NCBI RefSeq assembly: GCF_056712565.1
Contig: NZ_CM160072.1
Strand: one strand, 5' to 3'
Length of the DNA stretch: 64,000 bases
Below are positions 21,001 through 24,000 of this stretch, in pieces. Made by a program: the position numbers. Position 1 is the first letter of the stretch, and each line of letters begins with the position of its first letter.

Positions 21001-24000
21001 GGCGCAGGCCGGTGTGGATATCACGCTGATTTACTCAGGGGCGCACAAGGTGGATGGCAATCAGTTTGAAGCGTTGCCGGCAGAGGTTCGCCAGGACATG
21101 CAGCAGCGGATTGATGCGGCGCGCCGGATGTTTGCCGAAAAAGTGGCGATGTATACCGGTCTGTCTGTTGATGCCGTCACGGGAACAGAGGCTGCCGTTT
21201 TTGAAGGTCAGTCCGGCATTGAGGCCGGGCTGGCGGATGAATTAATCAATGCGTCGGATGCCATCAGTGTGATGGCCACGGCGCTGAACAGTAATGTCAG
21301 AGGAGGCACTATGCCGCAATTAACTGCAACGGAAGCCGCCGCGCAGGAGAACCAGCGAGTGATGGGGATCCTGACATGCCAGGAAGCGAAAGGACGTGAA
21401 CAGCTTGCCACGATGCTGGCAGGACAACAGGGCATGAGCGTTGAACAGGCCCGGGCGATTCTGGCCGCGGCGGCACCGCAGCAGCCGGTGGCATCCACGC
21501 AGAGTGAAGCCGATCGCATTATGGTGTGTGAAGAAGCGAACGGTCGTGAACAACTGGCGGCAACGCTGGCGGCGATGCCGGAGATGACGGTGGAAAAAGC
21601 CCGCCCGATCCTGGCGGCTGCACCACTGGCGGATGCCGGACCCTCGCTTCGTGATCAGATCATGGCCCTGGATGAGGCAAAAGGGGCTGAGGCGCAGGCT
21701 GAACAGCTGGCTGCCTGCCCGGGAATGACAGTGGAGAGCGCCCGGGCTGTGCTGGCTGCGGGATCAGGTAAGGCAGAACCGGTCTCTGCATCCACAACCG
21801 CCATGTTTGAACATTTCATGGCGAACCATTCACCGGCAGCGGTACAGGGTGGCGTGGCACAGACGTCAGCAGACGGTGATGCGGACGTGAAAATGCTCAT
21901 GGCCATGCCATGAAGTCAGTGCTGACCATCAATAGGAGGTTTTTACAATATGGTGACGAAAACCATCACTGAACAGCGTGCGGAAGTACGTATTTTTGCC
22001 GGTAATGATCCGGCTCATACCGCCACAGGCAGCAGCGGGATTTCCTCGCCAACACCGGCACTGACGCCCCTGATGCTGGATGAAGCCACCGGGAAACTGG
22101 TGGTCTGGGACGGACAGAAAGCCGGTAGTGCGGTTGGCATACTGGTACTGCCGCTTGAAGGCACAGAGACGGCGCTGACGTATTACAAGTCGGGAACCTT
22201 TGCGACGGAGGCAATCCACTGGCCTGAAAGTGTGGATGAACACAAAAAGGCCAACGCCTTTGCTGGCAGTGCCCTGAGTCACGCGGCGCTGCCGTAACAC
22301 GTTATCAGGCCACCGCGGTGGCCTGACTGATTTCTGAATGAAAGGAACTGATTTATGGGATTGTTTACGACCCGCCAGTTACTCGGTTATACCGAACAAA
22401 AAGTGAAATTCCGTGCGCTGTTTCTGGAGCTGTTTTTCCGCCGTACGGTGAATTTCCATACCGAAGAGGTGATGCTGGACAAAATTACCGGAAAAACGCC
22501 GGTGGCGGCCTATGTCTCCCCGGTTGTTGAAGGAAAAGTGCTGCGTCATCGTGGTGGTGAAACCCGCGTGTTGCGTCCGGGCTACGTCAAGCCGAAACAC
22601 GAATTTAATTACCAGCAGGCGGTTGAGCGCCTTCCTGGTGAAGATCCATCTCAACTGAATGATCCGGCTTACCGCCGTCTGCGTATCATTACCGATAACC
22701 TCAAACAGGAAGAGCACGCCATTGTCCAGGTGGAAGAAATGCAGGCGGTGAATGCCGTGCTGTATGGCAAATACACCATGGAAGGGGAGCAGTTTGATAC
22801 TGTCGAGGTGGATTTCGGGCGCTCTGAAGGAAATAACATTGAGCAGGCTGACGGTAAAAAATGGTCTGAGCAGGACCGTGATACGTTTGATCCGACGCAT
22901 GATATTGACCTCTACTGCGATCAGGCCAGCGGCCTTGTGAATATCGCCATTATGGACGGTACGGTCTGGCGTCTGCTGAATGGCTTTAAGCTGTTCCGCG
23001 AAAAACTGGATACCCGTCGCGGCTCAAATTCACAACTCGAAACGGCAGTGAAAGATCTGGGCGCAGTGGTGTCCTTCAAGGGGTATTACGGCGATCTGGC
23101 CATTGTGGTGGCGAAAACGTCTTATATAGCAGAAGACGGTACCGAAAAACGTTATCTTCCAGATGGCATGCTGGTTCTGGGGAATACTGCTGCAGATGGG
23201 ATCCGTTGTTACGGTGCCATTCAGGATGCTCAGGCGTTGTCCGAAGGTGTGGTGGCCTCTTCCCGTTATCCGAAACACTGGCTGACGGTAGGGGATCCCG
23301 CCCGTGAATTTACCATGACGCAGTCCGCGCCGCTGATGGTGTTGCCGGACCCGGATGAGTTTGTGGTGGTACAGGTGAAATAATCCGTGAGCGGGGGCGA
23401 AATGCCCCCGTGTCTTTTTTCACAGGAGGCTGAGATGGCAACAAAAGAAGAAAATCTGAATCGTCTTCGTCAACTGGCTGACCTGCTGGGGCGCGAGGCG
23501 GATATGTCGGGGAGTGCTGCGGATATTGCTCAACGTGTGTCTGAGTGGGAAGAGGAGCTTGCTGTTTCCCCGGAGGGCATTATGCACTCTGATGAGAGCG
23601 GGGCTGATCAAAATCACACAGACGATGGTGAGCAGTTGAACAACACGGATGCTCCGGATGATGTTAAAGCCGTCCGGGTACGGAAGTGCCTGCAAGTAAT
23701 GGGGTATTGCCCGGAGACAGGTCGTCCCGTTGAGCTGGCGTTACGGGGTATGCGTGTTCTGGTGCCATCATCACTGGCAACGGCCATGATACAGCACGGA
23801 ACGGCTGAATATGCGTGATTTTCAGAATGCCTTTGATGCTGCCCTCGCCGGGGTAGACAGTACGATCGTTGAAGTGATGGGGCTCTGTGCGCAGTTCACC
23901 TCGGGGGCACAGTGTGGCAGCGAAGTTCAGGGGGTTTTTGATGATCCGGAGTCGCTGGGGTTTGCCGGTGGCGGGGTCCGTATTGAAGGAAGCAGCCCGT

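Follow-up and report, generated by a model that had tools for sequence, protein, structure and literature searches.

The 64,000-nucleotide (nt) stretch analysed here, which we call the window (RefSeq assembly GCF_056712565.1, contig NZ_CM160072.1), holds a lambda-like prophage that carries on its plus strand a homologue of the phage lambda C gene, a prohead protease fused to a scaffold, in which an in-frame internal start opens a nested scaffold gene homologous to lambda Nu3. We call them genes 5 and 6, as in phage 21, and their products gp5 (or gpC) and gp6. The scaffold part contains three imperfect copies of a module of about 45 residues, already recorded in phage 21 as the Tri boxes. The features of the locus are as follows.

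20408-21913 (+): gene 5, gpC homologue, prohead protease fused to scaffold; 501 amino acids (aa), GTG start, from the open reading frame (ORF) list
20639-21286 (+): S49 (SppA-type) peptidase domain, aa 78-293
21300-21306 (+): Shine-Dalgarno sequence GAGGAGG of the nested scaffold gene, read directly from the sequence; putative gene 6 ribosome-binding site (RBS) in M81255.1 and OL657228.1
21311-21913 (+): nested gene 6 (Nu3 homologue), predicted scaffold; annotated coding sequence (CDS) in phage 21 records
21347-21481 (+): unit 1 (Tri1 box), gpC aa 314-358, located with a hidden Markov model (HMM); its first helix reaches upstream to ~21326
21503-21628 (+): unit 2 (Tri2 box), gpC aa 366-407, HMM
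21644-21769 (+): unit 3 (Tri3 box), gpC aa 413-454, HMM
21770-21910 (+): unrepeated C-terminal tail, gpC aa 455-501

The 501-aa protein, which is the translation of positions 20408-21910, matches the head maturation protease family phrog_53 over its full length (E = 5.7e-228). PF01343 (Peptidase_S49) covers aa 146-293 (E = 3.7e-35; 121.6 bits, cut-off 24.9) and TIGR00706 (SppA_dom) aa 78-291 (E = 1.1e-31, under the equivalog cut-off); the last 200 residues match no Pfam or NCBIfam model. Gene 5 follows a portal-like ORF (18826-20418) and precedes the genes for the decoration protein (21950-22297) and the major capsid protein (22355-23383), and this order of portal, protease-scaffold, decoration and capsid agrees with the annotation of phage 21, lambda, Gifsy-1 and N15. 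Gene 6 starts at ATG 21311 and has its frame and stop in common with gene 5; its computed product is an acidic protein of 200 aa and 20.5 kDa (pI 4.6). The internal ATG is homologous to lambda Met309, which is preceded by AGGAGG, and to the N15 gene 6 start. An S49 domain, the gene position, an internal start with its RBS, and a unit with a tail motif together identify the locus by sequence as lambda-type gpC/Nu3. The tail holds TTAMFEHFMANHSP (~21788-21829), its one conserved helix motif, and its terminal helix reads VKMLMAMP. The family consensus that follows the units, 't.aLD..M....P', is single in both lambda-type and 21-type proteins (TALDRLM...P in lambda, TAMFEHFM...P in the window).

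The triplication had been noticed in an earlier note, made from the sequence alone, as three imperfect copies of a ~40-aa unit at 21330-21790 in the Nu3-like C-terminal part of gpC. The strings quoted there stand in the translation letter for letter, the range is right when set against the coordinates of a six-frame HMM scan (21347-21769), and the units, which are closer to 45 aa, all lie downstream of the in-frame internal start. The note had left the significance of the repeat to formal analysis, which it passes readily. Pairwise local BLOSUM62 scores among the three units are 103, 83 and 93, where shuffled sequences average 23-26 (z = 18.3, 11.9 and 13.2), and none of 2,000 composition-preserving shuffles equalled an observed score. 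We then used a profile built from 76 units of single-copy relatives only, a restriction that avoids circularity, and it matched the window protein at aa 306-359, 361-409 and 417-453 with 76.9, 57.8 and 47.3 bits. A six-frame scan of the whole window returned exactly three copies, all of them inside the gpC gene. Tandem Repeats Finder (TRF) reported no repeat in the DNA and a DNA repeat finder gave 15-nt fragments only, because the copies have diverged too far; the triplication is visible at the protein level alone. The unit consensus reads ..IL..EAKGRE.LA..LA..PGMTVE.A..ILAAAP, in which (window gp6 numbering) I20, E25, A26, G28, R29, A33, L36, M42, A47 and L51 are at least 90% conserved and A37 is invariant.

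The triplication is real but ordinary. Along its full length the window gene is 99.4% identical at the nucleotide level to phage 21 gene 5 (M81255.1, OL657228.1). M81255.1 (1993), whose source paper we take to be Smith and Feiss in Gene, 1993, annotates repeat regions named 'Tri1 box', 'Tri box' and 'Tri3 box' inside gene 6, each noted 'function unknown; putative'. On window coordinates these fall at 21378-21481, 21518-21628 and 21659-21772 and coincide with the HMM units, and the same record annotates the nested in-frame gene 6 with its own RBS. Phage 21 therefore has the nested gene, the RBS and the three repeats at equal positions, and it differs from the window by few substitutions, such as that at the end of unit 2 (...ILAAAPLADAG in the window, ...ILAASPQADAG in phage 21). 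The window instance in itself matters little, being a near-identical copy, present in a third of complete Escherichia coli genomes, of a gene in which the repeats have been on record for 30 years. What goes beyond the earlier record is only the predicted three-helix fold, the evidence on age and constraint, and the polymorphic four- and five-unit alleles in other E. coli prophages. In a separate annotation, OL657228.1 places a minus-strand CII-site pattern (ttgyNNNNNNttgy) twice inside gene 6, at ~21316-21329 and ~21550-21563, as pattern matches only.

Comparison with lambda shows what the extra copies do to the length of the protein. Lambda C (439 aa), phi80 C and N15 gp5 (447 aa each) have one unit, and phage 21 and Salmonella Gifsy-1 (498 aa) have three. 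The differences between the window protein and lambda C, part by part, are these.

Unit region: window 141 aa, lambda 45 aa, difference +96
Linker from internal start to first unit: window 12 aa, lambda 48 aa, difference -36
Protease part: window against lambda, -7 aa
C-terminal tail: window against lambda, +9 aa

The lengths given in the earlier note (501 and 439 aa) are correct, and its view that the copies make the protein longer holds in that the unit region adds 96 aa; the 62-aa surplus is a net figure, after losses in the linker and the protease part. With one unit in lambda, phi80 and N15 and three in the window protein, its phrase 'scaffold-domain expansion' is a fair description, but the expansion is not new. 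The lambda group (lambda gpC/Nu3, N15 gp5/gp6 and phi80 gpC) otherwise shares the architecture: an S49 protease with a scaffold, an internal start behind AGGAGG, a single tail motif, and the gene order portal, C, decoration, major capsid. Its unit is 58-64% identical to the window units. It differs in having one unit rather than three and a 48-aa low-complexity linker where the window has 12 aa, and its protease part and capsid protein are ~61-62% identical to those of the window. Gifsy-1 stands closer: its three units are orthologues of the window units, position by position, and its capsid protein is 87% identical; its scaffold part is 53% identical, however, and its tail has diverged. As to the lambda gene itself, the RefSeq nu3 start at nt 5132 (NC_001416.1; 201 aa) has no visible Shine-Dalgarno sequence, whereas Met309 at nt 5342, with its AGGAGG and its homology to the gene 6 starts of phage 21 and N15, would give a Nu3 of 131 aa and 13.4 kDa.

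The same comparisons date the triplication and show that it has been maintained. Units of the window (21) type and of Gifsy-1 are 77, 74 and 64% identical as positional counterparts but only 47-63% identical as paralogues, and this pairing by position means that the triplication is older than the split between the 21 and Gifsy-1 lineages. Among the window paralogues, synonymous differences are saturated (proportion of differing synonymous sites, pS, 0.64-0.68). Between the window and Gifsy-1, the ratio of nonsynonymous to synonymous substitution rates (dN/dS) is ~0.11 when the three units are pooled; the protease part has 0.14, and the tail, at 0.39, is the least constrained part of the protein. 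All three units are therefore kept by purifying selection. More distant three-unit proteins have 45-55% identity to gp6.

The three-unit allele is common and nearly constant in length. It is present in 1,869 of 5,426 complete E. coli genomes, at most five times in any one of them, and the array had its canonical length in 57 of the 59 genomes sampled in a flank-to-flank survey. A rare exception is the 482-aa allele of E. coli MS 198-1 (NZ_CP146687.1; 571-2019 of the retrieved locus), in which an in-frame deletion of 19 aa (LAATLAAMPEMTVEKARPI) removes the second half of unit 2. Window-type genes also occur in the viable phages 21, ev017, 4A7, 1W and 3W. We searched 1.84 billion cluster representatives with the unit profile and obtained 798 proteins at E <= 1e-3; among the best 150 of these, 140 have one unit, six have two (mostly fragments) and four have three. 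The unit usually sits 40-60 residues from the C-terminus of S49 proteins of 400-550 aa or of short stand-alone scaffold ORFs. A phage collection held the three-unit form in 20 records and 93 further matches spanning less than 80% of gp6, and those inspected among the 93 (lambda, phi80, N15) have a single unit. A homologue search with gp6 gave mostly fragments, and the copy-number figures come from the unit profile and from flank-span BLAST surveys.

Two database proteins met along the way are curiosities in their own right. One, of 258 aa, resembles the C-terminal end of Gifsy-1 gpC but shows the replacements Ala->Val, Thr->Ile, Pro->Leu/Phe, His->Tyr and Arg->Cys all along its length, a global C->T conversion pattern that probably originates from an assembly of bisulfite-treated reads. 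In the other, of 270 aa, a stretch of ~65 residues with DPPY, a motif typical of DNA methyltransferases, stands ahead of a three-unit scaffold region; the protein may be a genuine fusion, or it may stem from a wrong gene call or from a chimeric contig.

To picture the module, we modelled gp6 with AlphaFold2. From the single sequence the model was poor (mean predicted local distance difference test, pLDDT, 64.5), and a Foldseek search with it returned nothing below E = 0.1. With an alignment of 93 rows, comprising 17 three-unit proteins (query included) and 76 single units, pLDDT rose to 80.4 (predicted template modelling score, pTM, 0.38); it lies at 85-95 within the units and drops in the linkers. 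Unit-only fragments were used in this alignment; sequences of unit plus tail had had their tails scattered over units 2-3. Each unit is predicted to form three helices, at gp6 residues 6-22, 30-37 and 44-53 in unit 1 (pLDDT 91-95), 66-72, 80-88 and 94-103 in unit 2 (87-90) and 113-119, 127-135 and 141-152 in unit 3 (85-89), and the tail two, at 160-173 and 190-196. In unit 1 the helices carry RVMGIL, REQLATMLA and VEQARAILAA and are joined by an EAKG turn and a GQQGMS loop. The model thus predicts independent small three-helix bundles on short linkers, like beads on a string. Structural matches in BFVD with a probability above 0.9 were only other S49 prohead proteases, one of them from a cyanophage. 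Staphylococcal protein A domains, the streptococcal GA module and UBA/CUE domains offer a structural analogy only: at 9-17% identity there is no sequence relationship, and the protein A, GA and UBA superposition scores are within the range expected for any small helical bundle. The scaffold of phage P22, gp8, likewise has a small helical element near its C-terminus, a helix-turn-helix that binds coat protein, but the window scaffold has no two-helix basic domain structurally matching P22 gp8 residues ~264-303.

We interpret the Tri boxes as diverged tandem paralogues of lambda's single ~45-residue module that probably serve the scaffold, and the protease with it, as modules for protein contact. 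Because gene 6 is nested in frame in gene 5, gp5 and gp6 have all three modules and the tail in common. The gp6 scaffold (200 aa) would be far more abundant than the gp5 protease (501 aa), and its modules would make protein contacts inside the procapsid, whether by self-association, by contact with the major capsid protein or by both. The protease, because it carries the same modules, would be co-targeted. Three copies would make the scaffold multivalent, which may be of benefit, and after assembly of the shell the S49 domain would degrade the modules. Precedents in related phages fit such a scheme. Lambda Nu3 gave Nu3-Nu3, Nu3-C and Nu3-E interactions in two-hybrid assays and is required for portal incorporation (PMC3224144), and Pseudomonas phage MD8 has a lambda-like scaffold region, without the final ~40 residues, joined straight onto its capsid protein (PMC8508860). 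The absence of those residues from the MD8 fusion hints that the tail is a capsid tether and the unit the scaffold core.

Several observations weigh against this interpretation. The tail, rather than the unit, could be the capsid-binding element. The lambda capsid protein (62% identical, 341 against 342 aa) is assembled with one unit, so three are not required for such a capsid, and the MS 198-1 allele, without half of unit 2, is still annotated as an intact CDS. Searches of the PDB with the protein sequence and with the unit profile found no relative, and the GenBank note on the Tri boxes still reads 'function unknown'; any binding partner of the unit is putative.

Among the rival explanations, the one to be taken most seriously is that the extra units are a passive spacer, serving only to hold a capsid-binding tail at a distance from the protease domain (or from the scaffold N-terminus) and replacing the ~48-aa linker of lambda, phi80 and N15. 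The 48 residues between lambda Met309 and the unit, against 12 in the window, invite this view, as do the tail motif, single-copy in all these proteins, and the MD8 scaffold, which dispenses with its last 40 residues when fused to the capsid protein and so suggests that the tail is a tether. A spacer, however, should not be as constrained as the protease domain, and the units are (dN/dS 0.11 against 0.14), while the tail is looser (0.39); ten unit positions are at least 90% conserved and A37 is invariant. Nor is total length held constant, since the scaffold has 131 aa in lambda (counted from Met309), 200 aa in the window and more again in the four- and five-unit relatives. On balance we think a spacer unlikely.

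The remaining alternatives are far less probable. Helices 2 and 3 (LAxxPGMTVExAxxIL) might be taken for helix-hairpin-helix-like modules that touch DNA during packaging, an idea prompted by a weak match of the Pfam HHH model to gpC aa 427-450 (E = 0.097) and by weak Foldseek matches to RuvA and RecR from the low-confidence first model. The Pfam score is 13 bits against a cut-off of 24, however, the units are acidic, and they have no G-h-G hairpin, the hairpins reading QGMS, PEMT and PGMT. On these grounds, and with the better AlphaFold2 model in hand, we rejected this identity and regard the Foldseek hint as misleading; a role in DNA contact is very improbable. It is more improbable again that the protein repeat is the by-product of an element in the DNA, such as repeated regulatory sites. 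The two CII-site patterns inside gene 6 speak for one, but neither TRF nor the repeat finder detected a DNA repeat beyond 15-nt fragments, and promoter and terminator scans of the array gave nothing beyond chance. Such an element is excluded because, between copies, synonymous sites are saturated but the protein sequence has been kept. Chance similarity of alanine-rich, low-complexity sequence, to which an Ala-rich region of 61-66% GC might be prone, is the least credible of all, being excluded by the shuffle test (z = 12-18, 0 of 2,000) and by the independent single-copy profile (47-77 bits).

The number of modules varies further in other E. coli prophages. The gpC gene of a related prophage in STEC005 (NZ_CP041437.1; 2078-2724 of the retrieved locus) encodes 584 aa with five units, in an array that TRF does report (138-nt period, 4.7 copies, 88% matches), and that of Sx181-0-1 (866-2482 of the retrieved locus) encodes 538 aa with four. 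These alleles have the same gene, module and 21-type capsid protein (83% identical to that of the window) but differ in that their units are near-identical and their copy number varies by one between strains. A flank-span survey of the four- and five-unit allele gave matches in 106 genomes, with both flanks in 86, and span classes of ~1310 and ~1170 nt, a difference of one unit; the allele was not found in a collection of isolated phages. Among units 2-5, pairwise identity is 85-98%, with a pS of 0.13 between units 2 and 3, and their near-identity together with this low value points to recent duplication or gene conversion. The alleles look like a variable-number-of-tandem-repeats polymorphism inside an essential head assembly gene. 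Their near-identical arrays also break short-read assembly, which has left many 'S49 family peptidase, partial' entries in the databases; fragments with near-identical units always lie at contig ends (e.g. 2-349) in short-read assemblies.

All multi-unit alleles accompany a 21-type capsid protein (342 aa, 83-87% identical to that of the window) and single-unit alleles a lambda-type one (341 aa, ~60-62% identical), and module number goes from 1 to 5 without change in capsid-protein length. One could go further and propose that module number is an evolvable, functionally tuned parameter of lambda-like heads and not a frozen accident, although we consider this rather unlikely. If it were true, the number of copies could adjust the avidity of the scaffold or the kinetics of assembly, or it could change what is recognised by host defence systems that respond to domains of the prohead protease or scaffold; such sensing has been reported for type I CBASS (cyclic oligonucleotide-based antiphage signalling system) and T1-like phages (bioRxiv 10.1101/2023.05.21.541620). 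The natural series of one, three, four and five units on closely related capsid proteins provides an experimental handle on the partner of the unit and on valency in a T=7 lambda-like head.

Elsewhere in the window, a GC-rich 9-bp hairpin (TCAGGCCACCGCGGTGGCCTGA) lies at 22305-22326 (+), just 3' of the decoration gene and 5' of the major capsid gene, and N15 has an annotated putative terminator at this position. Features farther from the head genes are listed here; those on the plus strand belong to the prophage.

6174-6348 (+): match to sok antitoxin RNA
10869-11118 (+): tRNA cluster, Met/Arg/Arg
11194-11871 (+): two matches to the small RNA STnc100
39842-40040 (+): IS009 RNA match, in the tail-fibre region
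43603-50133 (-): five long ORFs downstream of the Trp leader
50155-50248 (-): Trp leader

We take the five ORFs to be a putative trp operon, and host DNA near trp therefore seems to resume to the right of the prophage.

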